Shown here: positions 33,523-64,000 of the stretch, piece by piece | Numbering within the stretch: the stretch's first letter is position 1 | Layout: each line of letters begins with the position of its first letter | Source: Escherichia coli | Lineage (GTDB): Bacteria; Pseudomonadota; Gammaproteobacteria; Enterobacterales; Enterobacteriaceae | NCBI RefSeq assembly: GCF_003790525.1 | Contig: NZ_CP033635.1 | DNA: 64,000 bases | Direction: 5' to 3' (one strand) | Program-made: the position numbers and the translations under genes | Notes under the pieces: model-generated | What the model was told of the DNA's origin: nothing | What the model saw: the letters and a program-made list of their open reading frames with translations, nothing else | Databases searched by the model: none

Positions 33523-33537
33523 CCACGCAGTCGCGGC

Positions 33538-41105: not shown

Positions 41106-41131
41106 TTGGGCCAGTTAACTGGCCCTTTTTA
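41106..41131 (+). terminator. rho-independent terminator of yhjX
   Basis: gggccag-ttaa-ctggccc followed by tttttac. Confidence 0.75.
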
Positions 41132-43038: not shown

Positions 43039-43088
43039 GAAGCCTGCTGACTTTCTCGCCGATCAAAAGGCATTTTGCTATTAAGGGA

Positions 43089-43117
43089 TTGACGAGGGCG
43101 TATCTGCGCAGTAAGAT
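43089..43117 (+). promoter_or_regulatory. proK promoter (sigma70 -35 TTGACG, 17 bp spacer, -10 TAAGAT, GC-rich discriminator)
   Basis: ttgacg at 43089..43094 and taagat at 43112..43117, followed by gcgccccgc before the tRNA 5' end. Confidence 0.7.
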
Positions 43118-43129
43118 GCGCCCCGCATT

Positions 43130-43206
<77 letters not shown>

Positions 43207-43214
43207 AATTCGAA

Positions 43215-43241
43215 AAGCCTGCTCAACGAGCAGGCTTTTTT
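43215..43241 (+). terminator. rho-independent terminator of proK
   Basis: aagcctgct-caacg-agcaggctt followed by ttttttg. Confidence 0.85.
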
Positions 43242-43296
43242 GCATCTGTAGCTCATGAGGAAGAGAACCCCCGGGGGCGGGGAGGTTCGATTCGAC

Positions 43297-43385
43297 GTAG
43301 GCCTGATAAGACGCGCCAGCGTCGCATCAGGCAAATGTACCGGCCCATTGTCGGATGCGGCGCGACCGCCTTATCCGATCTACAC
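43297..43385. repeat. REP/BIME palindromic element pair
   Basis: gtaggcctgataagacgcg…gcatcaggca and …tcggatgcggcgcgaccgccttatccgatctaca. Confidence 0.7.
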
Positions 43386-43899
43386 ACCACACATTTCCCT
43401 GCCAAATTTGCGCCCCATATCTCACTATCCATTAACGGATTTGTGACAGAAACCATTGTCTTTTTTTATATTTGCTTAAATCTTTTTTTGCGTTACTTAT
43501 GGCTGGCGCTGGCATTTTCCGCTGTGCGTTTTAGCGTTCATGGTATTAATCGCTCAGATATCCACCTTTACCTCAGATTTTTTTCATTAAATGCATAAAA
43601 CTTAATCACCAAATGTTGCTAAATATTAAGCTGATTGTTCTGGTTGTGTTGGCGTAGCACAAATTTCTCTGCTGCAAATAGCTGTTTGAAGTTTTTTTAA
43701 TCTTTGTTTGTGGATTCTCACCGTTGGTGTAAATCCCGGTTGGCTGTATTGACGTTTTCACATTCTGTTGACAGATTGTAGGTCACGAGGGGCATTTTAT
43801 GGAGGATCCGCACTGTTACACTGATGTTAATTAGTACGGCATCCCCACCTCATAACGTTGACCCGACCGGGCAAAAAACAAAAAAGGTCAGGCAGCGAC

Positions 43900-43940
43900 A
43901 ACCCACTGCAAAGGGTTAAAACAACAAACATCACAATTGG
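43900..43940 (+). promoter_or_regulatory. C/A-rich segment of the dppA 5' leader (GcvB sRNA target-type sequence)
   Basis: aaaacaacaaacatcacaatt immediately upstream of the dppA RBS. Confidence 0.55.
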
Positions 43941-43949
43941 AGCAGAATA

Positions 43950-45557
43950 ATGCGTATTTCCTTGAAAAAGTCAGGGATGCTGAAGCTTGGTCTCAGCCTG
44001 GTGGCTATGACCGTCGCAGCAAGTGTTCAGGCTAAAACTCTGGTTTATTGCTCAGAAGGATCTCCGGAAGGGTTTAACCCGCAGCTGTTTACCTCCGGTA
44101 CCACCTATGACGCCTCTTCCGTACCGCTTTATAACCGCCTGGTTGAATTTAAAATCGGCACCACCGAAGTGATCCCGGGCCTCGCTGAAAAGTGGGAAGT
44201 CAGCGAAGACGGTAAAACCTATACCTTCCATCTGCGTAAAGGTGTGAAGTGGCACGACAATAAAGAATTCAAACCGACGCGCGAACTGAACGCCGATGAC
44301 GTGGTGTTCTCGTTCGATCGTCAGAAAAACGCGCAAAACCCGTACCATAAAGTTTCTGGCGGCAGCTACGAATACTTTGAAGGCATGGGCTTGCCGGAGC
44401 TGATCAGCGAAGTGAAAAAGGTGGACGATAACACCGTTCAGTTTGTGCTGACTCGCCCGGAAGCGCCGTTCCTCGCTGACCTGGCAATGGACTTCGCCTC
44501 TATTCTGTCAAAAGAATATGCTGACGCGATGATGAAAGCCGGTACACCGGAAAAACTGGATCTCAACCCAATCGGTACCGGCCCGTTCCAGTTACAGCAG
44601 TACCAGAAAGATTCCCGTATTCGCTATAAAGCGTTTGATGGCTACTGGGGCACCAAACCGAAGATCGATACGCTGGTCTTCTCTATTACTCCTGACGCTT
44701 CCGTGCGTTACGCGAAATTGCAGAAGAACGAATGCCAGGTGATGCCGTACCCGAACCCGGCAGATATCGCCCGCATGAAGCAGGATAAATCCATCAACCT
44801 GATGGAAATGCCGGGGCTGAATGTCGGTTATCTCTCGTATAACGTGCAGAAAAAACCACTGGATGACGTGAAAGTTCGCCAGGCTCTGACCTACGCGGTG
44901 AACAAAGACGCCATCATCAAAGCAGTTTATCAGGGCGCGGGCGTATCAGCGAAAAACCTGATCCCGCCAACCATGTGGGGCTATAACGACGACGTTCAGG
45001 ACTACACTTACGATCCTGAAAAAGCGAAAGCCTTGCTGAAAGAAGCGGGTCTGGAAAAAGGTTTCTCCATCGACTTGTGGGCAATGCCGGTACAACGTCC
45101 GTATAACCCGAACGCTCGCCGCATGGCGGAGATGATTCAGGCAGACTGGGCGAAAGTCGGCGTGCAGGCCAAAATCGTCACCTACGAATGGGGTGAGTAC
45201 CTCAAGCGTGCGAAAGATGGCGAGCATCAGACGGTAATGATGGGCTGGACTGGCGATAACGGGGATCCGGATAACTTCTTCGCCACCCTGTTCAGCTGCG
45301 CCGCCTCTGAACAAGGCTCCAACTACTCAAAATGGTGCTACAAACCGTTTGAAGATCTGATTCAACCGGCGCGTGCTACCGACGACCACAATAAACGTGT
45401 TGAACTGTACAAACAAGCACAGGTCGTGATGCACGATCAGGCTCCGGCACTGATCATCGCTCACTCCACCGTGTTTGAACCGGTACGCAAAGAAGTTAAA
45501 GGCTATGTGGTTGATCCATTAGGCAAACATCACTTCGAAAATGTCTCTATCGAATAA
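43950..45557 (+). CDS. dppA: dipeptide ABC transporter periplasmic binding protein
   Basis: 535 aa with signal peptide. Confidence 0.96.
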   Translation: MRISLKKSGMLKLGLSLVAMTVAASVQAKTLVYCSEGSPEGFNPQLFTSGTTYDASSVPLYNRLVEFKIGTTEVIPGLAEKWEVSEDGKTYTFHLRKGVKWHDNKEFKPTRELNADDVVFSFDRQKNAQNPYHKVSGGSYEYFEGMGLPELISEVKKVDDNTVQFVLTRPEAPFLADLAMDFASILSKEYADAMMKAGTPEKLDLNPIGTGPFQLQQYQKDSRIRYKAFDGYWGTKPKIDTLVFSITPDASVRYAKLQKNECQVMPYPNPADIARMKQDKSINLMEMPGLNVGYLSYNVQKKPLDDVKVRQALTYAVNKDAIIKAVYQGAGVSAKNLIPPTMWGYNDDVQDYTYDPEKAKALLKEAGLEKGFSIDLWAMPVQRPYNPNARRMAEMIQADWAKVGVQAKIVTYEWGEYLKRAKDGEHQTVMMGWTGDNGDPDNFFATLFSCAASEQGSNYSKWCYKPFEDLIQPARATDDHNKRVELYKQAQVVMHDQAPALIIAHSTVFEPVRKEVKGYVVDPLGKHHFENVSIE

Positions 45558-45570
45558 TTAAAAGCCATAC

Positions 45571-45612
45571 CCGGTGGCGCTGTGCCTCTGCGTGCAGCGC
45601 CATCCGGCAGCA
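45571..45612 (+). terminator. REP-like stem-loop in the dppA-dppB intergenic region (likely attenuator/mRNA stabiliser)
   Basis: tggcgctg-tgcctctgcgtg-cagcgcca palindrome. Confidence 0.5.
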
Positions 45613-45707
45613 ATACTTCATTCCCTGTCCCACAAGGGCGGGAATTGATTTGTGAGCAATACAGACACGCAGTTCCAGGCTGCGGGTCATTATAGAGAAT
45701 CCGGGTT

Positions 45708-46727
45708 ATGTTGCAGTTTATTCTCCGACGTTTGGGACTCGTCATCCCCACGTTTATCGGTATTACCCTTCTCACATTTGCCTTTGTCCACATGATCCCG
45801 GGCGATCCGGTGATGATCATGGCGGGCGAGCGTGGGATCTCCCCAGAGCGTCACGCGCAATTGCTGGCTGAACTCGGCTTAGATAAACCGATGTGGCAGC
45901 AGTATCTCCATTACATTTGGGGCGTAATGCACGGTGATTTAGGCATTTCCATGAAAAGCCGAATTCCGGTATGGGAAGAGTTCGTGCCGCGCTTTCAGGC
46001 TACGCTGGAACTTGGCGTCTGCGCGATGATTTTTGCGACGGCAGTCGGTATTCCGGTTGGTGTGCTGGCTGCGGTTAAACGTGGTTCCATTTTCGATCAC
46101 ACAGCGGTTGGCCTGGCGCTGACCGGCTACTCGATGCCAATTTTCTGGTGGGGCATGATGCTGATCATGCTGGTTTCGGTGCACTGGAACCTGACGCCTG
46201 TCTCCGGTCGTGTGAGCGACATGGTGTTCCTCGATGATTCCAATCCGTTAACCGGTTTTATGCTGATCGACACCGCCATCTGGGGTGAAGACGGTAACTT
46301 TATCGATGCCGTCGCCCATATGATCCTACCCGCCATTGTGCTGGGTACCATCCCGCTGGCGGTCATTGTGCGTATGACGCGCTCCTCGATGCTGGAAGTG
46401 CTGGGCGAAGATTATATCCGCACCGCGCGTGCCAAAGGTCTTACCCGGATGCGGGTGATTATCGTCCATGCGCTGCGTAACGCGATGCTGCCGGTGGTGA
46501 CCGTTATCGGCCTGCAGGTGGGAACATTGCTGGCGGGGGCGATTCTGACTGAAACCATCTTCTCGTGGCCCGGTCTGGGGCGTTGGTTGATTGACGCACT
46601 GCAACGCCGCGATTATCCGGTAGTGCAGGGCGGCGTATTGCTGGTGGCGACGATGATTATCCTCGTCAACCTGCTGGTCGATTTGCTGTACGGCGTGGTG
46701 AACCCGCGTATTCGTCATAAGAAGTAA
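45708..46727 (+). CDS. dppB: dipeptide ABC transporter permease
   Basis: 339 aa. Confidence 0.95.
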   Translation: MLQFILRRLGLVIPTFIGITLLTFAFVHMIPGDPVMIMAGERGISPERHAQLLAELGLDKPMWQQYLHYIWGVMHGDLGISMKSRIPVWEEFVPRFQATLELGVCAMIFATAVGIPVGVLAAVKRGSIFDHTAVGLALTGYSMPIFWWGMMLIMLVSVHWNLTPVSGRVSDMVFLDDSNPLTGFMLIDTAIWGEDGNFIDAVAHMILPAIVLGTIPLAVIVRMTRSSMLEVLGEDYIRTARAKGLTRMRVIIVHALRNAMLPVVTVIGLQVGTLLAGAILTETIFSWPGLGRWLIDALQRRDYPVVQGGVLLVATMIILVNLLVDLLYGVVNPRIRHKK

Positions 46728-46736
46728 GGGGACATC

Positions 46737-47639
46737 ATGTCACAGGTTACTGAAAATAAAGTGATTAGCGCACCGGTGCCGATGACCCCGTTACAGGAGT
46801 TCTGGCACTATTTTAAACGCAACAAAGGCGCGGTTGTCGGGCTGGTTTACGTCGTCATCGTGCTGTTTATCGCGATCTTTGCCAACTGGATTGCACCCTA
46901 TAACCCGGCGGAACAGTTCCGCGATGCACTGCTCGCCCCGCCAGCCTGGCAGGAAGGCGGCAGCATGGCGCACTTGCTGGGCACTGATGACGTGGGGCGT
47001 GATGTGCTGTCGCGGCTGATGTACGGCGCGCGCTTGTCGCTGCTGGTTGGCTGTCTGGTAGTGGTGTTATCGCTGATTATGGGCGTTATTCTCGGCCTGA
47101 TCGCTGGTTACTTTGGCGGTCTGGTCGATAACATCATCATGCGCGTGGTCGATATCATGCTGGCGCTGCCAAGTCTACTGCTGGCACTGGTGCTGGTGGC
47201 GATTTTCGGCCCGTCGATTGGTAACGCCGCGCTGGCGCTAACCTTCGTTGCGCTGCCGCATTATGTGCGCTTAACCCGCGCCGCCGTGCTGGTGGAAGTT
47301 AACCGCGATTACGTCACCGCGTCTCGCGTGGCGGGTGCCGGGGCAATGCGCCAGATGTTTATTAACATCTTCCCGAACTGCCTTGCGCCGCTGATTGTTC
47401 AGGCGTCGCTCGGTTTCTCTAACGCTATTCTCGATATGGCCGCCCTTGGCTTCCTCGGCATGGGGGCGCAGCCGCCAACGCCGGAGTGGGGCACCATGCT
47501 CTCTGACGTGTTGCAGTTCGCGCAAAGCGCCTGGTGGGTCGTGACCTTCCCGGGTCTGGCGATCCTGCTGACGGTGCTGGCATTTAACCTGATGGGTGAC
47601 GGTCTGCGTGACGCGCTCGATCCCAAACTGAAGCAGTAA
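46737..47639 (+). CDS. dppC: dipeptide ABC transporter permease
   Basis: 300 aa. Confidence 0.95.
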
Positions 47640-47649
47640 GAGGTTCGAG

Positions 47650-48633
47650 ATGGCGTTATTAAATGTAGATAAATTATCGGTGCATTTCGGCGACGAAAGC
47701 GCACCGTTCCGCGCCGTAGACCGCATCAGCTACAGCGTAAAACAGGGCGAAGTAGTCGGGATTGTGGGTGAGTCCGGCTCTGGTAAATCGGTCAGTTCGC
47801 TGGCGATTATGGGGCTGATTGATTATCCGGGCCGCGTAATGGCGGAAAAGCTGGAGTTTAACGGTCAGGATTTACAGCGTATCTCAGAAAAAGAGCGCCG
47901 CAACCTGGTGGGTGCCGAAGTGGCGATGATCTTCCAGGACCCGATGACCAGCCTTAACCCGTGCTACACCGTGGGTTTCCAGATTATGGAAGCGATTAAG
48001 GTGCATCAGGGCGGCAACAAAAGTACCCGCCGTCAGCGGGCGATTGACCTGCTGAATCAGGTCGGTATTCCCGATCCGGCATCGCGTCTGGATGTTTACC
48101 CGCATCAGCTTTCCGGCGGCATGAGCCAGCGCGTGATGATCGCCATGGCGATTGCCTGTCGGCCAAAACTGCTGATTGCCGATGAACCAACCACTGCGCT
48201 GGACGTGACCATTCAGGCGCAAATCATTGAACTACTGCTGGAGCTACAGCAGAAAGAGAACATGGCGCTGGTGTTAATTACCCATGACCTGGCGCTGGTG
48301 GCGGAAGCGGCACATAAAATCATCGTGATGTATGCAGGTCAGGTGGTGGAAACGGGCGATGCGCACGCCATCTTCCATGCGCCGCGTCACCCGTATACTC
48401 AGGCATTGCTGCGTGCGCTGCCGGAATTTGCTCAGGATAAAGAACGTCTGGCGTCGTTGCCAGGTGTTGTTCCCGGCAAGTATGACCGTCCGAACGGCTG
48501 CCTGCTTAACCCGCGCTGTCCCTACGCCACTGACAAATGCCGCGCTGAAGAACCGGCGCTGAATATGCTCGCTGACGGGCGTCAGTCCAAATGCCACTAC
48601 CCACTTGATGATGCCGGGAGGCCGACACTATGA
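47650..48633 (+). CDS. dppD: dipeptide ABC transporter ATP-binding protein
   Basis: 327 aa; Walker A GESGSGKS. Confidence 0.95.
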
Positions 48634-50935: not shown

Positions 50936-51410
50936 AAAGTCCTGTCCAGAAAGAAGTCGGCCTCGCAAAAATGAATAAACCCAGTTTCTCTTGCGCAACA
51001 GGTGGAGAAGTCGAATACGCAGTATGTAAAAAATGAGGCAACAGATTCACTGGGGAGGTCGCGAGGAGGCGCAATTCTACAAAATTGCGCATTTCACTAC
51101 CAGTCTGGAGTCAGCCCGGATATGAACTGCAACTATTGCAAATAAAGAAATTAAGCTGGAATGCATCACGCAATGAGGAAGATTGCCGGGTGCTGACGGT
51201 AAAAAGCAATCGTAGAATCAGCGGCAAGCCGGAAAGGTTCCGGTGAGGCGCAATGTTGCGGGGGCTTAATCCCTGGTGGCATTGGTTGCTGGAGAGAGAA
51301 AACCCCCGCATATTGCAGGTATGCACCTGACAACATCACGGGGGCTAATCTTGAACCTAGACCACTCAAGAATAGCCGCGAAACGTTGTCATTACAACAC
51401 AGGCGGCTAT

Positions 51411-51518
51411 ATGACGCTCGCAGAACTGGGCATGGCCTTCTGGCATGATTTAGCGGCTCCGGTCATTGCTGGCATTCTTGCCAGCATGATCGTGAACTGG
51501 CTGAATAAGCGGAAGTAA
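51411..51518 (+). CDS. ldrD: Ldr-family type I toxin peptide (35 aa), copy 1
   Basis: MTLAELGMAFWHDLAAPVIAGILASMIVNWLNKRK. Confidence 0.85.
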   Translation: MTLAELGMAFWHDLAAPVIAGILASMIVNWLNKRK

Positions 51519-51893
51519 CGTGTCAGACGGGCGTCAGGCTGCCGTAATGGCAATTTGCGCCCGGACCAGGCCGCAGGGATAAAACTCTGCGGCCTTTTTC
51601 GTAAGAAAAATGCAACGGTTGCAAGCGGATAATATTCTGCGGAATGCGCAGCACAGAGTGAAGACGTGACGGATTCCGGAACAGAAAAACAGTCGTAGAA
51701 TCAGCGGCAAGCCGGAAAGGTTCCGGTGAGGCGCAATGTTGCGGGGGCTTTATCCCTGGTGGCATTGGTTGCTGGAGAGAGAAAACCCCCGCACGTTGCA
51801 GGTATGCACCTGACAACACCACGGGGGCTAATCTTGACTCTAGACCACTCAAGAATAGCCGCGAAACGTTGTCATTACAACACAGGCGGCTAT

Positions 51894-52001
51894 ATGACGC
51901 TCGCAGAGCTGGGCATGGCCTTCTGGCATGATTTAGCGGCTCCGGTCATTGCTGGCATTCTTGCCAGCATGATCGTGAACTGGCTGAACAAGCGGAAGTA
52001 A
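51894..52001 (+). CDS. Ldr-family type I toxin peptide (35 aa), copy 2
   Basis: identical peptide to copy 1. Confidence 0.85.
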   Translation: MTLAELGMAFWHDLAAPVIAGILASMIVNWLNKRK

Positions 52002-52377
52002 CGTGTCAGACGGGCGTCAGGCTGCCGTAATGGCAATTTGCGCCCGGACCAGGCCGCAGGGATAAAACTCTGCGGCCTTTTTCGTAAGAAAAATGCAACG
52101 GTTGCAAGCGGATAATATTCTGCGGAATGCGCAGCACAGAGTGAAGAAGTGATGGATTTCGACGAACAAAAATGGCCGTAGAATCAGCGGCAAGCCGGAA
52201 GGGTTCCGGTGAGGCGCAATGTTGCGGGGGGCTTTATCCCTGGTGGCATTGGTTGCTGGAGAGAGAAAACCCCCGCACGTTGCAGGTATGCACCTGACAA
52301 CACCACGGGGGCTAATCTTGACTCTAGACCACTCAAGAATAGCCGCGAAACGTTGTCATTACAACACAGGCGGCTAT

Positions 52378-52485
52378 ATGACGCTCGCAGAGCTGGGCAT
52401 GGCCTTCTGGCATGATTTAGCGGCTCCGGTCATTGCTGGCATTCTTGCCAGTCTGATCGTGAACTGGCTGAACAAGCGGAAGTAA
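52378..52485 (+). CDS. Ldr-family type I toxin peptide (35 aa), copy 3 (M26L)
   Basis: MTLAELGMAFWHDLAAPVIAGILASLIVNWLNKRK. Confidence 0.85.
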   Translation: MTLAELGMAFWHDLAAPVIAGILASLIVNWLNKRK

Positions 52486-52861
52486 CGTGTCAGACGGGCG
52501 TCAGGCTGCCGTAATGGCAATTTGCGCCCGGATCAGGCCGCAGGGATAAAACTCTGCGGCCTTTTTCGTAAGAAAAATGCAACGGTTGCAAGCGGATAAT
52601 ATTCTGCGGAATGCGCAGCACAGAGTGAAGACGTGACGGATTCCGGAACAGAAAAACAGTCGTAGAATCAGTGGCAAGCCGGAAGGGTTCCGGTGAGGCG
52701 CAATGTTGCGGGGGGCTTAATCCCTGGTGGCATTGGTTGCTGGAGAGAGAAAACCCCCGCACGTTGCAGGTATGCACCTGACAACATCACGGGGGCTAAT
52801 CTTGAACCTTAACAACTCAAGAATAGCCGCGAAACGTTGTCATTACAACAGAGGCGGCTAT

Positions 52862-52969
52862 ATGACGCTCGCAGAACTGGGCATGGCCTTCTGGCATGAT
52901 TTAGCGGCTCCGGTCATTGCTGGCATTCTTGCCAGTCTGATCGTGAACTCGCTGAATAAGCGGAAGTAA
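52862..52969 (+). CDS. Ldr-family type I toxin peptide (35 aa), copy 4 (M26L, W31S)
   Basis: MTLAELGMAFWHDLAAPVIAGILASLIVNSLNKRK; tgg to tcg change. Confidence 0.8.
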   Translation: MTLAELGMAFWHDLAAPVIAGILASLIVNSLNKRK

Positions 52970-53055
52970 CGTGTCATGCGGGCGTCAGGCTGCCGTAATG
53001 GCAAGTTGCGCCCGGACCAGGCCGCAGGGGTGAAACTCTGCGGCCTTTTTCGTTC

Positions 53056-54735
53056 TTATTGCGGGTAAGGCACCCAGTCGCCGCCGTTCAGGCGAACGTA
53101 CGGTTTATCCTGGTATTGAATAACTACTGCATTTGAGTTCTCGGAGACCGGTGCTGTTTGTGGCAACCCACTGGTGAGTTTTTTCCAGTCAACATTGTCT
53201 TCGGTGAAAATCTTGCCATCAAGAACCCGAACCACCAGATCGGAGATAGCCAGGAAGCTGCTCGGTTGGTCGATGACAATCGGTGCCCCCTGATGTGGTG
53301 CCTTCATGCCGAAGAATTTCACCCCAACGGGGACGTCTGTGATAGACGGGCTAGGGATATCACGTAGGCCAGATACCTGCATTCTGTCGCCCTTCAGCGC
53401 GCCGCCGTGTTCTGGCACCACGACCACCATCACTTTACGACCCGATTTCTCCAGTTCAGTAAAGAAGGCGTCCAGTTCATCAAAGAATTTCTGCGCCCGC
53501 GCTTTGTAATCCGCTGTTTTGCTGACGCCCGGATAATGGTTGCCGTCATGCAGTGGAAGCGTGTTGTAGAACGTGGCACTACGGCTGTTTTTATCTTTTT
53601 CGGTAACGTCCAGCCAGCGGTTAAGCACGGCGGTATCGTCATAAACCGGCGAACCATCAAAGCCCAGCAAAATAACCGGCAGATTTGTTTGATCCATCAA
53701 TTCGGTCTGCATGCCACCATTTTCGCGAACTTCTTTCAAAAAACCGCCGAACTGGCCGTTATGTCCCATCATCAGGTGCTGGGTAAAGCCCAGTTTCGAC
53801 AGGTTATCAAACAGATAGCAGTCATTATTTGCCGGTTGATACAGATTAGTGTGCGAAGTCTGCCCGCAGCTGGCGCGCAGTAAACGGATCGCCGCCGGGC
53901 CACTGTGGGAGGTGGCGGAGTTAAAGTTCTTGAACTCAATATCGAAATGCGACCACAGCGGATGCGACATCAACCCGGCGGCTTCAATATCCGACCAGGA
54001 AAGCGAACAGATATTAATCACCAGTAGTTCAAATGGCTGAGCATCAGCGGGCAGCGAAGACGGGAAGGTCGATTTACGTTTCGCCTCCGCGTTATAGAAA
54101 TTATTCAGCCAGGCGTTAAGGTTCGCCGTTGTTGGCGGTGCAGTTTGTGCGGGCATATCACCCACTACCGGTGCGCCACCCGTCGCCGCAACGGTTGCCG
54201 CTGCGTTACCACCCGTCGTTGTTACAGTGGTCGTCGGTTGACCGGCAGGCCACAAGGAGAAACTTGGTCCCGCCAGGGTAAGTACGTTCAGCCATAGCAG
54301 AATGGCAACCACAAAAACGGTAATGCGAATCCATTGTGACAGGAATAACCAGGCCACTAATAAAACAAAAATGGCCCCAATCATCTGCCAGTTAATAAAG
54401 CGTGTGACAAGGTCGATTAAATAATCGGTACTGAACCCCGCCACCTGCGAACCCTGGCTCATTATGCTTTCCGGGCCAGGCAACCAGGTGTCATGCCAGA
54501 ACAAAGCAAAGCCGATCGGCAGGGCAATCCAGTGGCGTAAGCGATGCAGGCTGTAGCGCGGAATGGGCATCAGCAGAAACGCGGCAAACACCAGATTGAG
54601 GAGCGGATGGAAGTTAAGATATCCTGCCCACAACAGGCCGAACTTAACCAGAAAATAGAAGTTCCAGCCGGAAAGGCCGCGCCAGTATTGCCAGAGGGAA
54701 GAAGGCATGGCGGTATTTTGCGTAAATTGAGTCAT
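53056..54735 (-). CDS. bcsG: cellulose phosphoethanolamine transferase
   Basis: 559 aa; N-terminal membrane domain plus alkaline-phosphatase-superfamily domain. Confidence 0.92.
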
Positions 54736-54923
54736 TTTTTGGTTGCCCTGGCTTTTTCCGTGCGGCGTAACGTCCCGGCCGGTTTAACATAACGAGGTTT
54801 AGCAAAGAACAAACGTAAGGTGTCGCGAATGCGTCGCAAAGAGTGCCGCGCCAGATAGCCCAGCGGGAAAAATATCAGTGCGCAAACGACAATAATTTCA
54901 ATGATATCGCTGATGGTCATCAT
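54732..54923 (-). CDS. bcsF: cellulose biosynthesis small membrane protein
   Basis: 63 aa, single TM; overlaps bcsG and bcsE. Confidence 0.88.
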
Positions 54924-56491
54924 GATGAGCGCTCCACAGCATCATCTAACAGTCGCATTGGTTCTGGTATTCGTCGCCAGTGGCGACCATCGTGCTCGGC
55001 ATTGATGACCGGTTTAGAACTTTGCGTTAAAGGCAGCGGCATGCCCCATTGTTCTGGGGCAAGCAGGCGCATCTGCACCAGCTCGGCACTGATTTGATCA
55101 TCTTCAAACCAGACCATACGGTTTGAGAAAATGTCGCCAGTCGGCAATGGGAAAATATGATTCAACGCGGTATCCAGATCGTTAATCCGACAGAATGAGA
55201 GAAACAGCACCAGCCGATTACCGCCAATGGTCATGATATCGCCAGTGCGATTAGGGCGACATAGCGTCAGGGCTTGCTCAACGCGGATACCCGGTACCGG
55301 ACGTAGGGCAACCAGAACGCCTTTACCGTGGGCAGGTAATAGAGGGTTATTCATCATGTTGTTGACGGCATTACAGAACACATCCCACTTCTGGAAACCA
55401 CGCAGTTTGAGCGGCTGGGTCATTGACAGCAAGGTAGTGATATCTTCCGGCACATAGCGACTAAACTTCTGCCCTTGCACGCTTTCGATCATCGTCAGAC
55501 AGCGGGAGAGTGGGGCATTCCATGGGATAACCATATTTGCACCGCAGGCCAATAACAAACGTTCATCGGTGGCGCGCAGGCTAGCGGTATTTTCCCGTAC
55601 GAGGATTTTCATCGCACTACCGCGCTGGCGACGCAGAGTATGAATGCTGCGGGCCAGTGGCTCGATTTGCGCATTTTGTTGTAAAGAAAAGACCACCGTC
55701 GCCGCCTGAGCGGTACGGGCTTCATTAAACAGGACTTCGTTATTGTTGAACAGTTGCCAGTGTTCCGATAGCGGCGGCGCACCTTCAAGTACAGAAACAT
55801 TACTCAGAATGCGTTTTTCGTCGCTGCGTGGTTGGATTTCCGCCTCTTGGTGTTGAACTAATGTCCAGCAACCATTTTGTTGCTGAACGCTAAGCTGCTG
55901 ACGGGCGCTGACCCCTTTTTCGTTGCACCAGAAAGCAATATCCAGCAAATGTTGGTCGCCCTGAAAACGCAAACTGGCAAGACCAAAAAGTGAACGGTAT
56001 TCCTCAAGTAACAATGAAAATTGTTTATCGTTATTATTTCCGGAATTAATTACCAAAAGCGAACAATGGTTTAGCCGGCTCCATTTATTCATTTTATCCA
56101 ACCATGAGCGAAGCCGCTCGGCAGGAATGTTTTGCCATGCGTTATTTGCGCAAACAAGAATAAAAAGGTAATTATGGGGATCAATAGAACACTGCAAATC
56201 ACGGGCCAAATAGTATAGACCTTTTTCATGATTTAGCATTGAAAATAATGTTATTTTTCCCGGCCCTTGAGAATCATCTAATTGAAAGATTTTCGCTGGA
56301 TCGCTGTCCATGCTAATGACCGCGACGTGTGCGGTTTCAGCCTGGGATGCAATTGTTTGATTCGCCAGACTGATAGCATCTTCATGGCGATCGACGTTAA
56401 ACCACCAGACGCCGCCTGCTGGCATATGTCGCAGCTCATCCCATAATGATGAGATACCGATAGAGAATACAGGGTCCACAATGTCCCTCAT
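54920..56491 (-). CDS. bcsE: cellulose biosynthesis protein BcsE (c-di-GMP-binding GIL domain)
   Basis: 523 aa. Confidence 0.92.
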
Positions 56492-56762
56492 GTCAACATT
56501 TTGTCTGATTATCAGTTTACTAGCGAAAGCTAAGAAATAAACCTACCATTGAAATTAAAACTTATCAGATTTAGCATGTGAATCAATTTAGCAGGTCACA
56601 AGACATGTGATTTTAGTCTTTTCGTTTTTAACTTTTTCTGTTGCGTAACGGAAAGTCAAAAAGTGAGCACATTCCCGTCTCGCCGTAAACAATAAACCGG
56701 CGAAATGCTCACGGTTAGAATTGTCTCATGAACGGTACGGTTATTTCATAGGGATCAAGCAA

Positions 56763-56951
56763 ATGAATAACAATGAACCAGATACTCTGCCTGATCCCGC
56801 GATAGGCTATATCTTCCAGAATGATATTTTGGCGTTAAAGCAGGCATTTTCACTGCCTGATATTGATTATGCCGATATTTCCCAACGCGAACAGTTGGCC
56901 GCGGCATTAAAACGCTGGCCGTTGCTGGCAGAGTTTGCGCAACAAAAGTAG
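56763..56951 (+). CDS. bcsR: cellulose biosynthesis protein BcsR
   Basis: ATG at 56763 gives 62 aa MNNNEPDTLPDPAIGYIFQNDILALKQAFSLPDIDYADISQREQLAAALKRWPLLAEFAQQK. Confidence 0.88.
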   Translation: MNNNEPDTLPDPAIGYIFQNDILALKQAFSLPDIDYADISQREQLAAALKRWPLLAEFAQQK

Positions 56952-56962
56952 GGGATTGGTGA

Positions 56963-57715
56963 ATGGCCGTACTGGGATTGCAGGGGGTGCGGGGAGGCGT
57001 GGGGACAACAACCATCACCGCCGCATTAGCCTGGTCATTACAAATGTTGGGAGAAAATGTCCTGGTGGTCGATGCCTGCCCGGACAACTTGTTGCGCCTG
57101 TCATTTAACGTTGATTTTACCCACCGTCAGGGCTGGGCCAGAGCTATGCTGGATGGCCAGGACTGGCGTGACGCCGGGTTGCGCTATACCTCGCAGCTCG
57201 ATTTGCTGCCTTTTGGTCAGTTATCCATTGAAGAACAAGAAAATCCACAGCACTGGCAAACCCGGCTGAGCGATATTTGCTCCGGCTTACAGCAACTAAA
57301 AGCCAGCGGGCGTTACCAGTGGATTTTAATTGACTTACCGCGTGATGCCTCACAGATAACCCACCAGCTGCTGAGTTTGTGCGATCACTCGCTGGCAATC
57401 GTCAATGTGGATGCCAACTGCCATATCCGACTGCATCAGCAAGCGCTGCCGGATGGCGCGCATATTTTGATTAATGACTTCCGTATCGGCAGTCAGGTTC
57501 AGGACGATATTTACCAGCTTTGGTTGCAAAGCCAGCGCCGATTACTGCCAATACTCATTCATCGTGATGAAGCGATGGCTCAATGCCTGGCGGCTAAGCA
57601 ACCAGTCGGTGAATACCGCAGTGATGCGCTGGCGGCTGAAGAGATACTGACGCTGGCTAACTGGTGCCTGTTGAACTATTCCGGGCTGAAAACGCCAGTC
57701 GGGAGTGCATCATGA
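56963..57715 (+). CDS. bcsQ: cellulose biosynthesis protein BcsQ (MinD/ParA-type ATPase), intact reading frame
   Basis: 250 aa uninterrupted; codon 6 is TTG (56978..56980); deviant Walker A GVRGGVGTTT. Confidence 0.92.
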   Translation: MAVLGLQGVRGGVGTTTITAALAWSLQMLGENVLVVDACPDNLLRLSFNVDFTHRQGWARAMLDGQDWRDAGLRYTSQLDLLPFGQLSIEEQENPQHWQTRLSDICSGLQQLKASGRYQWILIDLPRDASQITHQLLSLCDHSLAIVNVDANCHIRLHQQALPDGAHILINDFRIGSQVQDDIYQLWLQSQRRLLPILIHRDEAMAQCLAAKQPVGEYRSDALAAEEILTLANWCLLNYSGLKTPVGSAS

Positions 57716-60330
57716 GTATCCTGACCCGGTGGTTGCTTATCCCGCCGGTCAACGCGCGGCTTATCGGGCGTTATCGCGATTATCGTCGTCACGGTGCGTC
57801 GGCTTTCAGCGCGACGCTCGGCTGTTTTTGGTTGATCCTGGCCTGGATTTTTATTCCGCTGGAGCACCCGCGCTGGCAGCGTATTCGCGCAGAACATAAA
57901 AACCTGTATCCGCATATCAACGCCTCGCGTCCGCGTCCGCTGGACCCGGTCCGTTATCTCATTCAAACATGCTGGTTACTGATCGGTACATCGCGCAAAG
58001 AAACGCCGAAACCGCGCAGGCGGACATTTTCAGGTCTGCAGAATATTCGTGGACGTTACCATCAATGGATGAACGAGCTGCCTGAGCGCGTTAGCCATAA
58101 AACACAGCATCTCGATGAGAAAAAAGAACTCGGCCATTTGAGCGCCGGGGCGCGGCGGTTGATCCTCGGTATCATCGTCACCTTCTCGCTGATTCTGGCG
58201 TTAATCTGCGTTACCCAGCCGTTTAACCCGCTGGCGCAGTTTATCTTCCTGATGCTGCTGTGGGGTGTAGCGCTGATCGTACGGCGGATGCCGGGGCGCT
58301 TCTCGGCGCTAATGTTGATTGTGCTGTCGCTGACCGTTTCTTGCCGTTATATCTGGTGGCGCTACACCTCTACGCTGAACTGGGACGATCCGGTCAGCCT
58401 GGTGTGCGGGCTTATTCTGCTGTTCGCCGAAACGTACGCGTGGATTGTGCTGGTGCTCGGTTACTTCCAGGTGGTATGGCCGCTGAATCGTCAGCCGGTG
58501 CCATTGCCGAAAGATATGTCGCTGTGGCCGTCGGTGGATATCTTTGTCCCGACTTACAACGAAGATCTCAACGTGGTGAAAAATACGATTTACGCCTCGC
58601 TGGGTATCGACTGGCCGAAAGACAAGCTGAACATCTGGATCCTCGATGACGGCGGCAGGGAAGAGTTTCGCCAGTTTGCGCAAAACGTGGGGGTGAAATA
58701 TATCGCCCGTACCACTCATGAACATGCGAAAGCGGGCAACATCAACAATGCGCTGAAATATGCCAAAGGCGAGTTCGTGTCGATTTTCGACTGCGACCAC
58801 GTACCAACGCGATCGTTCCTGCAAATGACCATGGGCTGGTTCCTGAAAGAAAAACAACTGGCGATGATGCAGACGCCGCACCACTTCTTCTCACCGGACC
58901 CGTTTGAACGCAACCTGGGACGTTTCCGTAAAACACCGAACGAAGGCACGCTGTTCTATGGTCTGGTGCAGGACGGCAACGATATGTGGGACGCCACCTT
59001 CTTCTGCGGTTCATGTGCGGTGATTCGCCGTAAACCGCTGGATGAAATTGGCGGCATTGCTGTCGAAACGGTAACTGAAGATGCGCATACTTCTCTGCGT
59101 TTGCACCGTCGTGGCTATACCTCCGCGTATATGCGTATTCCGCAGGCGGCGGGGCTGGCGACCGAAAGTCTGTCGGCGCATATCGGTCAGCGTATTCGCT
59201 GGGCGCGCGGGATGGTACAAATCTTCCGTCTCGATAACCCGCTCACCGGTAAAGGGCTGAAGTTTGCTCAGCGGCTATGTTACGTCAACGCCATGTTCCA
59301 CTTCTTGTCGGGCATTCCACGGCTGATCTTCCTGACTGCGCCGCTGGCGTTCCTGCTGCTTCATGCCTACATCATCTATGCGCCAGCGTTGATGATTGCC
59401 CTGTTCGTGCTGCCGCATATGATCCATGCCAGCCTGACCAACTCCAAGATCCAGGGCAAATATCGCCACTCTTTCTGGAGTGAAATCTACGAAACGGTGC
59501 TGGCGTGGTATATCGCACCACCGACGCTGGTGGCGCTGATTAACCCGCACAAAGGCAAATTTAACGTCACCGCCAAAGGTGGACTGGTGGAAGAAGAGTA
59601 CGTCGACTGGGTGATCTCGCGGCCCTACATCTTCCTTGTTCTGCTCAACCTGGTGGGCGTTGCGGTAGGCATCTGGCGCTACTTCTATGGCCCGCCAACC
59701 GAGATGCTCACCGTGGTCGTCAGTATGGTGTGGGTGTTCTACAACCTGATTGTTCTTGGCGGCGCAGTTGCGGTATCGGTAGAAAGCAAACAGGTACGCC
59801 GATCGCACCGCGTGGAGATGACGATGCCCGCGGCAATTGCCCGCGAAGATGGTCACCTCTTTTCGTGTACCGTTCAGGATTTCTCCGACGGTGGTTTGGG
59901 GATCAAGATCAACGGTCAGGCGCAGATTCTGGAAGGGCAGAAAGTGAATCTGTTGCTTAAACGTGGTCAGCAGGAATACGTCTTCCCGACCCAGGTGGCG
60001 CGCGTGATGGGTAATGAAGTTGGGCTGAAATTAATGCCGCTCACCACCCAGCAACATATCGATTTTGTGCAGTGTACGTTTGCCCGTGCGGATACATGGG
60101 CGCTCTGGCAGGACAGCTATCCGGAAGATAAGCCGCTGGAAAGTCTGCTGGATATTCTGAAGCTCGGCTTCCGTGGCTACCGCCATCTGGCGGAGTTTGC
60201 GCCTTCTTCGGTGAAGGGCATATTCCGTGTGCTGACTTCTCTGGTTTCCTGGGTTGTATCGTTTATTCCGCGCCGCCCGGAGCGGAGCGAAACGGCACAA
60301 CCATCGGATCAGGCTTTGGCTCAACAATGA
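57712..60330 (+). CDS. bcsA: cellulose synthase catalytic subunit (GT2 plus PilZ)
   Basis: ATG at 57712 (ATGA overlap with the bcsQ stop) gives 872 aa starting MSILTRWLLIPPVNARL. Confidence 0.95.
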   Translation: MSILTRWLLIPPVNARLIGRYRDYRRHGASAFSATLGCFWLILAWIFIPLEHPRWQRIRAEHKNLYPHINASRPRPLDPVRYLIQTCWLLIGTSRKETPKPRRRTFSGLQNIRGRYHQWMNELPERVSHKTQHLDEKKELGHLSAGARRLILGIIVTFSLILALICVTQPFNPLAQFIFLMLLWGVALIVRRMPGRFSALMLIVLSLTVSCRYIWWRYTSTLNWDDPVSLVCGLILLFAETYAWIVLVLGYFQVVWPLNRQPVPLPKDMSLWPSVDIFVPTYNEDLNVVKNTIYASLGIDWPKDKLNIWILDDGGREEFRQFAQNVGVKYIARTTHEHAKAGNINNALKYAKGEFVSIFDCDHVPTRSFLQMTMGWFLKEKQLAMMQTPHHFFSPDPFERNLGRFRKTPNEGTLFYGLVQDGNDMWDATFFCGSCAVIRRKPLDEIGGIAVETVTEDAHTSLRLHRRGYTSAYMRIPQAAGLATESLSAHIGQRIRWARGMVQIFRLDNPLTGKGLKFAQRLCYVNAMFHFLSGIPRLIFLTAPLAFLLLHAYIIYAPALMIALFVLPHMIHASLTNSKIQGKYRHSFWSEIYETVLAWYIAPPTLVALINPHKGKFNVTAKGGLVEEEYVDWVISRPYIFLVLLNLVGVAVGIWRYFYGPPTEMLTVVVSMVWVFYNLIVLGGAVAVSVESKQVRRSHRVEMTMPAAIAREDGHLFSCTVQDFSDGGLGIKINGQAQILEGQKVNLLLKRGQQEYVFPTQVARVMGNEVGLKLMPLTTQQHIDFVQCTFARADTWALWQDSYPEDKPLESLLDILKLGFRGYRHLAEFAPSSVKGIFRVLTSLVSWVVSFIPRRPERSETAQPSDQALAQQ

Positions 60331-60340
60331 TGATAACGCG

Positions 60341-62680
60341 ATGAAAAGAAAACTATTCTGGATTTGTGCAGTGGCTATGGGGATGAGTGCGTTCCCCTCT
60401 TTCATGACGCAGGCGACGCCAGCAACGCAACCACTGATCAATGCTGAGCCAGCTGTAGCCGCCCAGACGGAACAAAATCCGCAGGTGGGGCAAGTGATGC
60501 CGGGCGTGCAGGGCGCTGATGCCCCCATCGTGGCGCAGAACGGTCCTTCGCGTGATGTGAAGCTGACCTTTGCGCAAATTGCGCCGCCGCCGGGCAGCAT
60601 GGTGCTACGTGGCATTAACCCGAACGGCAGCATTGAGTTTGGTATGCGCAGTGATGAAGTGGTGACGAAGGCGATGCTCAACCTCGAATACACGCCATCG
60701 CCATCGTTACTGCCTGTCCAGTCGCAGTTAAAGGTTTATCTCAATGATGAACTGATGGGCGTGCTGCCAGTGACCAAAGAACAGTTGGGTAAAAAAACGC
60801 TGGCGCAAATGCCCATTAACCCACTGTTTATTACCGACTTCAACCGTGTGCGGCTGGAGTTTGTCGGCCATTATCAGGACGTGTGCGAAAACCCGGCCAG
60901 CACCACGCTTTGGCTGGATGTTGGGCGGAGCAGTGGACTGGATTTGACCTATCAGACCCTGAATGTGAAGAATGACCTGTCACACTTCCCGGTGCCATTC
61001 TTTGACCCGCGTGATAACCGCACCAACACCTTGCCGATGGTCTTTGCGGGTGCGCCGGATGTTGGGCTGCAACAAGCATCTGCCATTGTCGCCTCGTGGT
61101 TTGGTTCGCGTTCTGGCTGGCGTGGGCAGAACTTCCCGGTGCTCTATAACCAACTGCCGGATCGCAATGCCATTGTTTTTGCCACTAATGACAAACGGCC
61201 GGACTTCCTGCGCGATCATCCGGCGGTAAAAGCCCCGGTGATTGAAATGATCAACCATCCGCAGAATCCTTACGTCAAACTGCTGGTGGTCTTTGGTCGT
61301 GACGACAAAGACCTGTTGCAGGCAGCGAAAGGTATCGCTCAGGGTAACATTCTGTTCCGTGGTGAAAGCGTGGTAGTGAATGAAGTGAAACCGCTGCTAC
61401 CGCGTAAGCCGTACGATGCGCCGAACTGGGTGCGTACCGATCGTCCGGTCACCTTTGGTGAACTGAAAACCTATGAAGAACAGTTACAATCCAGCGGTCT
61501 TGAGCCAGCAGCGATTAACGTTTCGCTAAATCTGCCGCCGGATCTCTACCTGATGCGCAGTACCGGCATTGATATGGATATCAACTATCGCTACACCATG
61601 CCGCCGGTGAAAGACAGTTCGCGGATGGATATCAGCCTGAATAACCAGTTCCTGCAATCCTTCAACCTGAGCAGTAAACAGGAGGCGAACCGCCTGCTGC
61701 TGCGGATTCCGGTATTACAAGGTTTGCTGGATGGCAAAACGGATGTCTCTATTCCGGCGCTGAAACTGGGCGCGACCAACCAGTTGCGGTTCGACTTTGA
61801 GTATATGAACCCGATGCCGGGCGGTTCGGTGGATAACTGTATTACCTTCCAGCCGGTGCAGAATCATGTGGTGATTGGTGACGACTCCACCATCGACTTC
61901 TCGAAGTATTACCACTTCATCCCGATGCCGGATCTACGCGCCTTTGCTAACGCGGGCTTCCCGTTCAGCCGGATGGCGGATCTGTCACAAACCATCACCG
62001 TGATGCCGAAAGCGCCTAACGAAGCACAGATGGAAACCTTGCTGAATACCGTTGGCTTTATCGGTGCGCAGACGGGCTTCCCGGCGATTAACCTGACGGT
62101 GACCGATGATGGCAGCACCATTCAGGGCAAAGATGCCGACATCATGATCGTCGGTGGTATCCCGGACAAACTGAAAGACGACAAGCAGATCGACCTGTTG
62201 GTGCAGGCGACCGAAAGCTGGGTGAAAACGCCGATGCGCCAGACCCCATTCCCCGGCATTGTACCGGACGAGAGCGATCGCGCGGCAGAAACTCAGTCAA
62301 CGCTGACCTCTTCCGGTGCGATGGCAGCGGTGATTGGCTTCCAGTCGCCGTATAACGACCAGCGTAGCGTGATTGCGCTGCTGGCAGATAGCCCACGCGG
62401 TTATGAAATGCTTAACGATGCGGTGAACGATAGCGGCAAACGCGCCACCATGTTCGGTTCGGTCGCGGTGATCCGCGAGTCCGGTATCAATAGCCTGCGT
62501 GTTGGCGACGTCTATTACGTTGGCCATCTGCCGTGGTTCGAACGCTTATGGTATGCCCTGGCAAACCATCCGATTCTGCTGGCGGTGCTGGCGGCAATCA
62601 GCGTCGTGCTGCTGGCATGGGTACTGTGGCGTTTGCTGCGTATTATCAGCCGTCGTCGTCTTAACCCGGATAACGAGTAA
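60341..62680 (+). CDS. bcsB: cellulose synthase periplasmic subunit
   Basis: ATG at 60341 gives 779 aa starting MKRKLFWICAVAMGMSAFP. Confidence 0.95.
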   Translation: MKRKLFWICAVAMGMSAFPSFMTQATPATQPLINAEPAVAAQTEQNPQVGQVMPGVQGADAPIVAQNGPSRDVKLTFAQIAPPPGSMVLRGINPNGSIEFGMRSDEVVTKAMLNLEYTPSPSLLPVQSQLKVYLNDELMGVLPVTKEQLGKKTLAQMPINPLFITDFNRVRLEFVGHYQDVCENPASTTLWLDVGRSSGLDLTYQTLNVKNDLSHFPVPFFDPRDNRTNTLPMVFAGAPDVGLQQASAIVASWFGSRSGWRGQNFPVLYNQLPDRNAIVFATNDKRPDFLRDHPAVKAPVIEMINHPQNPYVKLLVVFGRDDKDLLQAAKGIAQGNILFRGESVVVNEVKPLLPRKPYDAPNWVRTDRPVTFGELKTYEEQLQSSGLEPAAINVSLNLPPDLYLMRSTGIDMDINYRYTMPPVKDSSRMDISLNNQFLQSFNLSSKQEANRLLLRIPVLQGLLDGKTDVSIPALKLGATNQLRFDFEYMNPMPGGSVDNCITFQPVQNHVVIGDDSTIDFSKYYHFIPMPDLRAFANAGFPFSRMADLSQTITVMPKAPNEAQMETLLNTVGFIGAQTGFPAINLTVTDDGSTIQGKDADIMIVGGIPDKLKDDKQIDLLVQATESWVKTPMRQTPFPGIVPDESDRAAETQSTLTSSGAMAAVIGFQSPYNDQRSVIALLADSPRGYEMLNDAVNDSGKRATMFGSVAVIRESGINSLRVGDVYYVGHLPWFERLWYALANHPILLAVLAAISVVLLAWVLWRLLRIISRRRLNPDNE

Positions 62681-62686
62681 TTGAAG

Positions 62687-63793
62687 ATGAATGTGTTGCG
62701 TAGTGGACTCGTGACGATGCTGCTGCTGGCTGCCTTTAGTGTTCAGGCAGCCTGCAACTGGCCTGCCTGGGAGCAATTCAAAAAGGATTACATCAGTCAG
62801 GAAGGGCGCGTCATTGACCCAAGTGACGCGCGTAAAATCACCACTTCCGAAGGGCAAAGTTACGGCATGTTCTTTGCCCTGGCGGCTAACGACCGTGCAG
62901 CTTTCGATAATATTCTCGACTGGACGCAGAACAATCTCGCTCAGGGTTCTTTAAAAGAACGTTTGCCCGCATGGCTGTGGGGCAAGAAAGAGAACAGTAA
63001 GTGGGAAGTGCTGGACAGCAATTCGGCCTCCGATGGTGATGTCTGGATGGCCTGGTCGTTGCTGGAGGCGGGGCGTTTGTGGAAAGAGCAGCGTTATACC
63101 GACATCGGCAGCGCGTTGTTAAAACGTATTGCGCGGGAGGAAGTGGTGACGGTGCCTGGGCTGGGTTCCATGTTGTTGCCGGGCAAAGTGGGATTTGCAG
63201 AGGATAACAGCTGGCGTTTTAACCCCAGCTACCTGCCGCCGACGCTGGCGCAGTATTTCACCCGCTTTGGCGCGCCGTGGACTACGCTGCGCGAAACCAA
63301 TCAACGTTTATTGCTGGAAACCGCCCCGAAAGGCTTTTCGCCAGACTGGGTGCGCTATGAGAAAGACAAAGGCTGGCAGCTAAAAGCCGAAAAAACATTG
63401 ATCAGCAGCTACGACGCGATCCGCGTTTACATGTGGGTAGGCATGATGCCTGACAGCGATCCGCAAAAAGCGCGGATGCTCAACCGGTTTAAACCGATGG
63501 CGACATTCACCGAGAAAAACGGTTATCCGCCGGAAAAAGTGGATGTGGCTACGGGGAAAGCACAGGGTAAAGGACCGGTCGGTTTTTCTGCCGCCATGCT
63601 GCCCTTTTTACAAAACCGCGATGCGCAGGCCGTTCAGCGCCAGCGCGTGGCCGATAACTTTCCCGGCAGCGATGCCTATTACAACTATGTGCTGACCCTG
63701 TTTGGACAAGGCTGGGATCAACACCGTTTCCGCTTCTCGACAAAAGGTGAGTTATTACCTGACTGGGGCCAGGAATGCGCAAATTCACACTAA
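62687..63793 (+). CDS. bcsZ: endo-1,4-beta-glucanase (GH8)
   Basis: 368 aa starting [21 protein letters not shown]. Confidence 0.93.
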
Positions 63794-64000
63794 ACATATT
63801 CACGCTTTCCCTCGGTCTGGCCGTCATGCCGATGGTCGAGGCAGCACCAACCGCTCAGCAACAGTTGCTGGAGCAAGTTCGGTTAGGCGAAGCGACCCAT
63901 CGTGAAGACCTGGTGCAACAGTCGTTGTATCGTCTGGAACTTATTGATCCGAATAACCCGGACGTCGTTGCCGCCCGTTTCCGTTCTCTGTTACGTCAGG
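63776..64000 (+). CDS. bcsC: cellulose synthase outer-membrane/TPR subunit, 5' portion only (continues beyond the window)
   Basis: ATG at 63776 overlapping the bcsZ 3' end; [40 protein letters not shown]…; no stop codon within the window. Confidence 0.88.

Follow-up and report, generated by a model that had tools for sequence, protein, structure and literature searches.

The window, i.e. the whole stretch of Escherichia coli DNA analysed here (64,000 nucleotides), ends in a cluster of bcs genes for the synthesis, secretion and modification of cellulose. On the plus strand lie bcsR, bcsQ, bcsA, bcsB and bcsZ, followed by the beginning of bcsC, and diverging from them on the minus strand are bcsE, bcsF and bcsG. 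Eight of the nine genes are complete and open, while the ninth (bcsC) is cut at position 64000. This gene set, its order and its divergent layout are shared with the E. coli-like (type II) Bcs system described from strain 1094 and Salmonella (the BcsRQABEF macrocomplex along with BcsG, BcsZ and BcsC; PMC8892547), and the catalytic and c-di-GMP-binding motifs of that system are also conserved in the window. The window departs from it in having a His in BcsG in place of the otherwise invariant Tyr277, and its bcsC is visible only in part. The overall arrangement, bcsRQABZ(C) with a divergent bcsEFG, suggests that bcsQ sits in a structurally complete type II locus.

Table 1. Features of the bcs region, in window coordinates. 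Profile scores are given in bits against the curated cut-off of each model.
Feature	Position	Strand	Remarks
bcsG	53056..54735	-	559 aa; phosphoethanolamine transferase modifying cellulose; TIGR03368, 814.6 bits vs cut-off 410.2
bcsG codon 277	53905..53907	-	CAC (His) vs TAC (Tyr) in K-12; adjoins catalytic Ser278
bcsF	54732..54923	-	63 aa; TIGR03493, 116.4 bits vs cut-off 56; identical to K-12
bcsE	54920..56491	-	523 aa; c-di-GMP-binding regulator; NF011619, 1183.6 bits vs cut-off 929
Divergent bcsE/bcsR intergenic (promoter) region	56492..56762		271 nt; four substitutions and one 1-nt indel vs K-12
bcsR (yhjR)	56763..56951	+	62 aa; NF040717, 75.8 bits vs cut-off 46; V23L vs K-12
bcsQ	56963..57715	+	250 aa, intact; SIMIBI/MinD-like ATPase of the cellulose secretion complex; from ORF and translation
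bcsQ codon 6	56978..56980	+	TTG (Leu); TAG in K-12
ATGA overlap of bcsQ stop (TGA) and bcsA start (ATG)	57712..57715	+	direct reading; K-12 arranged alike
bcsA	57712..60330	+	872 aa; cellulose synthase catalytic subunit; NF008558, 1792.8 bits vs cut-off 992, positions 1-872 of 872
bcsB	60341..62680	+	779 aa; periplasmic co-catalytic subunit; NF008325, 1385.4 bits vs cut-off 922; eight conservative differences vs K-12
bcsZ	62687..63793	+	368 aa; periplasmic endoglucanase; NF008305, 595.6 bits vs cut-off 299
bcsC (first 75 codons, cut by window end)	63775..64000	+	NF008520, positions 1-75 of 1157

Read directly, bcsQ runs from an ATG (56963..56965) to a TGA (57713..57715) with no interruption over its 250 aa, and its codons 2-6 are GCC GTA CTG GGA TTG. 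It lies between bcsR, which ends upstream at 56951, and bcsA, which starts at 57712 directly downstream and is preceded by a Shine-Dalgarno sequence (GGGAG) located inside bcsQ, 7 nt 5' of the bcsA ATG. In the K-12 strain MG1655 (NC_000913.3) the gene has the same length and the same ATGA overlap with bcsA, but it is annotated as a pseudogene (b3534). The alignment shows the difference at codon 6: K-12 reads ATGGCCGTACTGGGATAG where the window reads ...GGATTG, a lone T-to-A change at nucleotide 17 that separates Leu6 from a stop. The K-12-type null allele (17 T>A, TAG at codon 6) is not carried by the window. An earlier note on this DNA had described an intact bcsQ of 250 aa, with TTG at codon 6 and an ATGA overlap, and all of this was confirmed by direct reading. 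Its further statement that K-12 has TTG changed to TAG at this codon agrees both with the MG1655 alignment, which it had proposed as a check, and with the literature (PMC5944007, PMC7397504, PMC5014196; on the lesion and its repair also PMC5635171); the possibility that MG1655 also has TTG is excluded.

At the protein level, only L6 (a stop in K-12), M197I and E207Q distinguish the BcsQ of the window from that of K-12. BcsQ belongs to the MinD/SIMIBI-type ATPases, and its Walker A motif is a deviant one (PMC8892547). The translation (MAVLGLQGVRGGVGTTT...) contains this motif as G8VRGGVGTTT, and the residues T15, C39, N152, R156 and N171 are all kept (motif and residue list from PMC8892547). 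The NCBIfam equivalog profile for BcsQ, NF007460, matches residues 1-250 of 250 with 540 bits (cut-off 399), and for TIGR03371 the score is 292.7 bits (cut-off 157.85). Cellulose secretion depends on BcsR and on BcsQ, both of them essential; their ATP-bound BcsR2Q2 complexes bind BcsE, BcsF recruits these complexes to the membrane, and the assembly and activity of BcsA-BcsB depend on them (PMC8892547).

The other complete genes (bcsR, bcsA, bcsB, bcsZ, bcsE, bcsF and bcsG) agree exactly with K-12 in length and in their start and stop codons and contain no internal stops, and all eight complete Bcs proteins give end-to-end NCBIfam equivalog matches above the curated cut-offs. The claim that these seven genes are full length is upheld by both comparisons. 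Cellulose synthases of the GT2 type with a PilZ domain are recognized by their D, DxD, TED and QxxRW motifs and by the PilZ RxxxR motif for c-di-GMP. In BcsA we found DCD360, FFCGS430, TED455, QRIRW493 and the PilZ motif RRSHR696, and the differences from K-12 are M41L, A93T and A105T. E55 and D243 of BcsZ, as well as R306/D309 and R415/D418 of BcsE, are also kept. Apart from the two BcsQ substitutions, 29 amino-acid differences from K-12 are spread over the other seven proteins. Every residue of BcsR, BcsQ, BcsA, BcsB and BcsZ in the window occurs either in K-12 or in strain 20, and every difference in BcsE is a polymorphism also present in other strains. BcsG differs from K-12 by L58I, Y277H, S344T and E489D.

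The effect of the codon 6 stop has been demonstrated by reverting it: changing TAG back to TTG in W3110 (giving strain AR3110) renders the strain cellulose-positive (PMC5944007, PMC7397504, PMC5014196), and the TTG state that was engineered in AR3110 is the one that the window carries. For the stop, PMC5944007 offers two accounts, either an effect on BcsQ function or a polar effect. The earlier note had attributed the loss of cellulose to polarity on bcsA. The ATGA overlap makes this plausible, as do the roughly 735 nt that go untranslated in K-12, but it is one of two non-exclusive explanations, BcsQ itself being essential (PMC5944007, PMC8892547). Judging from the overlap, ribosomes ending bcsQ could re-initiate on bcsA, and a TAG at codon 6 would both remove BcsQ and leave that long untranslated stretch upstream of bcsA. 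Either effect would probably suffice to abolish cellulose, and neither is expected to occur in the window. A consensus scan of 56400..58000 gave no promoter-like or terminator-like matches above shuffled expectation, and the terminator-like hairpins found inside bcsR and bcsQ were no more numerous than in shuffled sequence, so that at the sequence level the scan speaks neither for intrinsic terminators within bcsQ nor against them.

To see how widespread each allele is, we used 41-mers centred on the variable base, with a megablast word of 28 exactly matching bases, such that the other allele cannot match. Among 5426 complete E. coli genomes, the TTG 41-mer matched 4891 and the TAG 41-mer 349. 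In the remaining 186 the region is absent or other variants lie close by, and the bcsRQ stretch had no match in 123 genomes. An even sample of the TAG genomes (n = 60) consisted entirely of genomes of 4.52-4.70 Mb, mostly named K-12 derivatives, and all 60 look like K-12 laboratory derivatives; named examples of the TAG allele include MG1655, BW25113, DH5alpha, DH1, J53, HB101, MC4100, TG1 and XL1-Blue. TTG is the ancestral and majority state; the TAG lesion belongs to the K-12 laboratory lineage. As about 90% of E. coli genomes have TTG, a wild-type bcsQ in the window is true but ordinary. The contrast with K-12 drawn in the earlier note is correct as far as K-12 goes, but it marks nothing special, as it would apply to nearly every natural E. 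coli. The wild-type gene is an already known feature, and the K-12 lesion has reportedly been known since 2013, Serra 2013 being said to be the primary paper. From the sequence comparisons we consider it highly likely that the window carries a wild-type bcsQ, with the rest of the visible bcs locus open, and that this is an ordinary feature, a judgement that leaves the cellulose phenotype aside. Being the default of natural E. coli, an intact bcsQ carries little significance as a finding.

The closest relatives of the window place its lineage in phylogroup F, as ST354-like, together with SMS-3-5 and LS45; SMS-3-5 is a phylogroup F strain of ST354 (PMC5635171, PMC9174282). Over positions 53000..64000 a single base differs between the window and SMS-3-5 (NC_010498.1), G to A at 62248, which is synonymous (CCG to CCA, BcsB Pro636), and the eight complete Bcs proteins are identical in both. 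The bcsE/bcsR intergenic region is also identical in SMS-3-5 and LS45. Beside bcsG, SMS-3-5 has five Ldr/Rdl units whereas the window has four, and relative to K-12 the SMS-3-5 genome shows a large inversion. Against positions 1..47996, LS45 shows not one mismatch and two gaps of a single base each, which both fall within an IS150 copy. SMS-3-5 matches the window at 100% over a stretch of 1.1 kb, but it was rejected as the source. None of the complete genomes compared has an identical 24-kb match; the best is LS45 (99.9%), and its differences over the 24 kb fall mostly in the Ldr repeats. Strain 20 had also been considered as a close relative and was rejected, its bcsRQ being identical but the rest mosaic.

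Since most of bcsC lies beyond the window end, the locus cannot be called complete from the window alone. BcsC is the outer-membrane component required for cellulose export, and a bcsC truncated or interrupted past 64000 would make export fail despite an intact bcsQ. Only 75 of the 1157 codons are visible, and among the bcs lesions on record for ST354 a truncated bcsC is the most frequent, found in 3% of the sampled genomes (PMC10881479, Supplementary Data 3). Against such a lesion, the visible 75 aa are identical to residues 1-75 of K-12 BcsC, and an open 1157-codon bcsC, encoding the same protein (WP_001225150.1), is present in all five lineage genomes examined (SMS-3-5, LS45, 2D, M172-1 and 23CRST013). 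In each of the five an intact pdeK (annotated as hmsP) comes next. We consider a bcsC defect in this strain very improbable. Taking these five genomes as proxies, the strain would be genetically equipped for both polymerisation and export of cellulose, provided that bcsC continues intact past 64000 as it does in them.

The locus is very probably able to polymerise cellulose, and cellulose synthesis by the strain is plausible. The expression used in the earlier note, a cellulose-proficient locus, is right in that bcsQ is intact and eight bcs genes are full length, but it claims more than this permits: bcsC, which the note does not mention, is cut, and BL21 and H10407 are calcofluor-negative on LB with no bcs nonsense mutation (PMC5944007). 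As these two strains show, open bcs frames do not guarantee cellulose. It could therefore be that all the genes are functional and yet no cellulose is detectable under standard conditions, as a result of regulation (csgD/dgcC expression, temperature, c-di-GMP turnover) or of cumulative missense changes. Besides BL21 and H10407, the wide variability of rdar morphotype expression among E. coli isolates (PMC5635171) speaks for this, as does the requirement of cellulose synthesis for RpoS, CsgD and DgcC (PMC7397504, PMC5014196), whose genes all lie outside the window. In the proxy genome SMS-3-5, however, adrA/dgcC (371 aa), rpoS (330 aa), csgD (216 aa, with csgBAC and csgEFG) and pdeK are all full length by annotation, the residues of BcsR, BcsQ, BcsA, BcsB and BcsZ are all known from K-12 or strain 20 as described above, and the bcsE-bcsR promoter region differs from K-12 at only five positions. 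A literature search combining SMS-3-5 and cellulose found no cellulose phenotype data for SMS-3-5 or ST354. A silent but functional locus seems unlikely to us, if well short of negligible. It is in any case compatible with the explanation preferred here, an ordinary wild-type bcsQ in an open locus, and disputes only the phenotype predicted from it.

The one mildly interesting point of the locus is the Y277H substitution in BcsG. The zinc ligands and nucleophile of this enzyme (C243, S278, E442 and H443), as well as H396, R458 and the C290-C306 disulfide, are described in PMC8892547 and PMC10525099, and the window keeps every one of these residues (C243, S278, C290, C306, H396, E442, H443 and R458). 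The Tyr that adjoins the nucleophile, present in the solved BcsG structures of E. coli and Salmonella, is replaced here by His277. PMC8892547 and PMC10525099 describe Tyr277 as part of the lining of the active-site pocket and as a residue found specifically in BcsG homologues, where it probably positions the glucan; a Y277A mutant is reported, with reference to Anderson et al. 2020, to be non-functional in vivo in AR3110. The mutant and the window concern the same residue next to Ser278, but the substitution assayed was Ala, whereas the window has His, which a few distant BcsG-family proteins also have naturally (see below).

The His277 allele is rare in the species. The 41-mer test found it in 25 of the 5426 complete E. 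coli genomes, against 5269 with the Tyr allele. Outside E. coli, we compared 120 enterobacterial BcsG cluster representatives (74-99% identity; Salmonella, Enterobacter, Citrobacter, Klebsiella, Kosakonia, Kluyvera, Cronobacter and others), and all 119 that have a residue at this position have Tyr, an invariance equal to that of Ser278 and the zinc ligands. Within a panel of 16 E. coli genomes, the only changes in BcsE, BcsF and BcsG confined to the lineage of the window were Y277H and BcsE A233S. The latter was rejected as a private change, its 41-mer being found in 158 genomes including IAI39, CE10 and ST648 strains, i.e. it is a phylogroup F polymorphism, which leaves Y277H as the sole BcsE/F/G change private to the lineage. 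The bcs loci of SMS-3-5, LS45, 2D, M172-1 and 23CRST013 have His277 as in the window, and the exact His277 protein is present on at least 1000 contigs, so that it is a fixed feature of a much-sequenced clone and not an error.

One of the 25 His277 genomes, CUWW10, is unrelated to this lineage. Its bcsG has the K-12 sequence plus T829C, without the window variants at nt 777 and 912, and an import of the allele from ST354 was rejected on these grounds. In CUWW10 an IS1 element has removed bcsR and bcsQ together with most of bcsA and the first part of bcsE; with the locus destroyed in this way, the sole independent occurrence of His277 in E. coli is in a non-functioning locus.

The picture is more permissive at larger distances. 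We took 150 distant BcsG-family proteins, one for each 50%-identity cluster, at 32-56% identity. Tyr occupies position 277 in 139 of them and His in six; one has Leu and one has Ile. The Leu277 protein also lacks the catalytic residues and the Ile277 protein is a fragment. All six His277 proteins, in turn, keep C243, S278, H396, E442 and H443, and their nearest neighbours mostly have Tyr, which indicates that His arose several times. His is thus the sole recurrent natural alternative at this position in otherwise intact members of the BcsG family. The two His277 proteins that could be placed on contigs lie beside c-di-GMP or glycosyltransferase genes, outside the canonical enterobacterial bcs operon, and the tolerance seen in such proteins may not transfer to E. 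coli.

The earlier note had held the synthesis of phosphoethanolamine (pEtN) cellulose to be genetically possible on account of the open frames, but it overlooked Y277H, a rare allele at a residue reported to be required. Because of this substitution, pEtN modification of cellulose in the strain is uncertain. Polymerisation could be intact while Y277H substantially impairs the modification: the substitution would weaken the positioning of the glucan beside Ser278 and the zinc ion, resulting in unmodified or under-modified cellulose. Congo red and macrocolony phenotypes would then be weakened or changed although bcsQ is wild type. The pocket location of Tyr277 and the failure of Y277A in AR3110 (PMC8892547, PMC10525099), the rarity of the allele in E. 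coli, the invariance of Tyr among the enterobacterial representatives, the restriction of the change to this lineage and the ruined locus of CUWW10 all point this way. So do the consequences of losing the enzyme, as a BcsG S278A strain gives a Congo red signal at background only (PMC11379886) and non-polar deletions of bcsE, bcsF or bcsG in AR3110 lead to a curli-only morphotype (PMC4287979). Weighing against impairment, the mutant assayed was Ala and not His; His recurs in 6 of the 150 distant homologues, catalytically intact and scattered among Tyr-bearing neighbours; Tyr and His are both planar and both able to donate hydrogen bonds; and the clone in which the allele is fixed is a widespread one, six sampled members of which have all other bcs genes open. 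On balance we hold a substantial impairment to be a real but doubtful prospect. Whatever its outcome, the phenotypes of S278A, of the bcsEFG deletions and of BL21 and H10407 imply that Congo red or calcofluor staining could be negative or altered despite a wild-type bcsQ.

With bcsQ itself being ordinary, the substitution is best seen against what is known of bcs decay in the species. Loss-of-function mutations in bcs genes have been found in 74 of 76 major E. coli sequence types (PMC10881479). That survey scored truncations, and for ST354 it recorded, apart from the truncated bcsC mentioned above, only a truncated bcsB (1%), so that about 96% of ST354 counts as 'intact' in truncation-based screens (PMC10881479), the kind that documented a convergent loss of cellulose functions among pathogenic E. 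coli. Since truncations were what was counted, a functional missense change would escape it. Y277H might be a change of this kind, a cryptic missense substitution by which pEtN modification is reduced or lost, and it would be fixed in ST354, a multidrug-resistant clone of global distribution; to us this broader proposal appears rather unlikely. If it were true, ST354 would make unmodified cellulose, and convergent attenuation would extend to a lineage that is counted as cellulose-proficient.

A prediction of the matrix phenotype from the window should therefore go beyond the observation that all frames are open, as bcsC lies mostly outside and BcsG carries a rare substitution. If Y277H impairs modification, bcs surveys restricted to truncations would underestimate functional loss. 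ST354, which occurs in poultry, dogs, humans and water, would then supply unmodified cellulose in nature and offer a test of what pEtN contributes outside the laboratory.

BcsG, the phosphoethanolamine transferase that modifies cellulose, has a Tyr-to-His change at residue 277 in the window. The residue adjoins the catalytic Ser278, Tyr277 has been reported to be functionally required (PMC8892547, PMC10525099), and tyrosine is invariant here among enterobacterial BcsG homologues, with histidine occupying the position in 6/150 distant family members. The Y277H allele is rare, with 25 carriers among the 5426 complete E. coli genomes. One carrier is E. coli CUWW10 (NZ_CP182145.1; L016 11001..15372), in which an IS1 deletion took bcsR, bcsQ and the 5' parts of bcsA and bcsE, and in which the remaining bcsG has the K-12 sequence except for T829C (Y277H), as in the window. 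In CUWW10 the substitution arose independently, and the bcs locus there is dead.

The nearby bcsE differs from K-12 by an N-terminal cluster in codons 78-233 (E78G, K81T, P150S, I208C, S214H, E215Q and A233S), of which A233S is shared throughout phylogroup F (158 genomes). The cluster is a haplotype common to unrelated strains, and its members are natural polymorphisms rather than changes specific to the lineage. At the far end of the locus, the start of bcsC overlaps bcsZ by 19 nt.

Features of the window discussed in the text
Feature	Position	Strand	Remarks
IS150 copy	about 29.8-31.2 kb		adjoins hokA
Ldr toxin/RdlD antisense RNA array	51158..53010		four tandem units between yhjV and bcsG; type I toxin-antitoxin
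rdlD (Rfam matches)	51297-51362, 51780-51845, 52264-52329, 52748-52813	minus	
bcsG	53056..54735		
BcsG Y277H codon	53905..53907	minus	inside bcsG
bcsE	54920..56491		
bcsC	63775..64000		export component; first 75 codons only, cut by window end

Among the close relatives, the chromosome of SMS-3-5 (NC_010498.1) is extensively inverted compared with that of K-12, as seen in the region of about 1.05-2.26 Mb, with the markers his/gnd (1.05 Mb), csg (2.10 Mb) and serC (2.23 Mb) in reversed order. Comparison with LS45, another relative, revealed only two differences in the first 48 kb, a single extra G at 30555 and at 31035, both within IS150. The LS45 copy carries a frameshift annotation, and therefore that of the window may be the intact form.

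The Ldr/RdlD units, which repeat with a period of ~484 nt in the window, vary in number at this site. K-12 has a single unit versus four in the window; LS45 and strain 20 (identical in bcsRQ, mosaic elsewhere) also have four, whereas SMS-3-5, 2D, M172-1 and 23CRST013 have five. Since the window and LS45 differ almost solely within 51665..52392, inside the array, the sequences suggest that it has undergone copy-number change and gene conversion.
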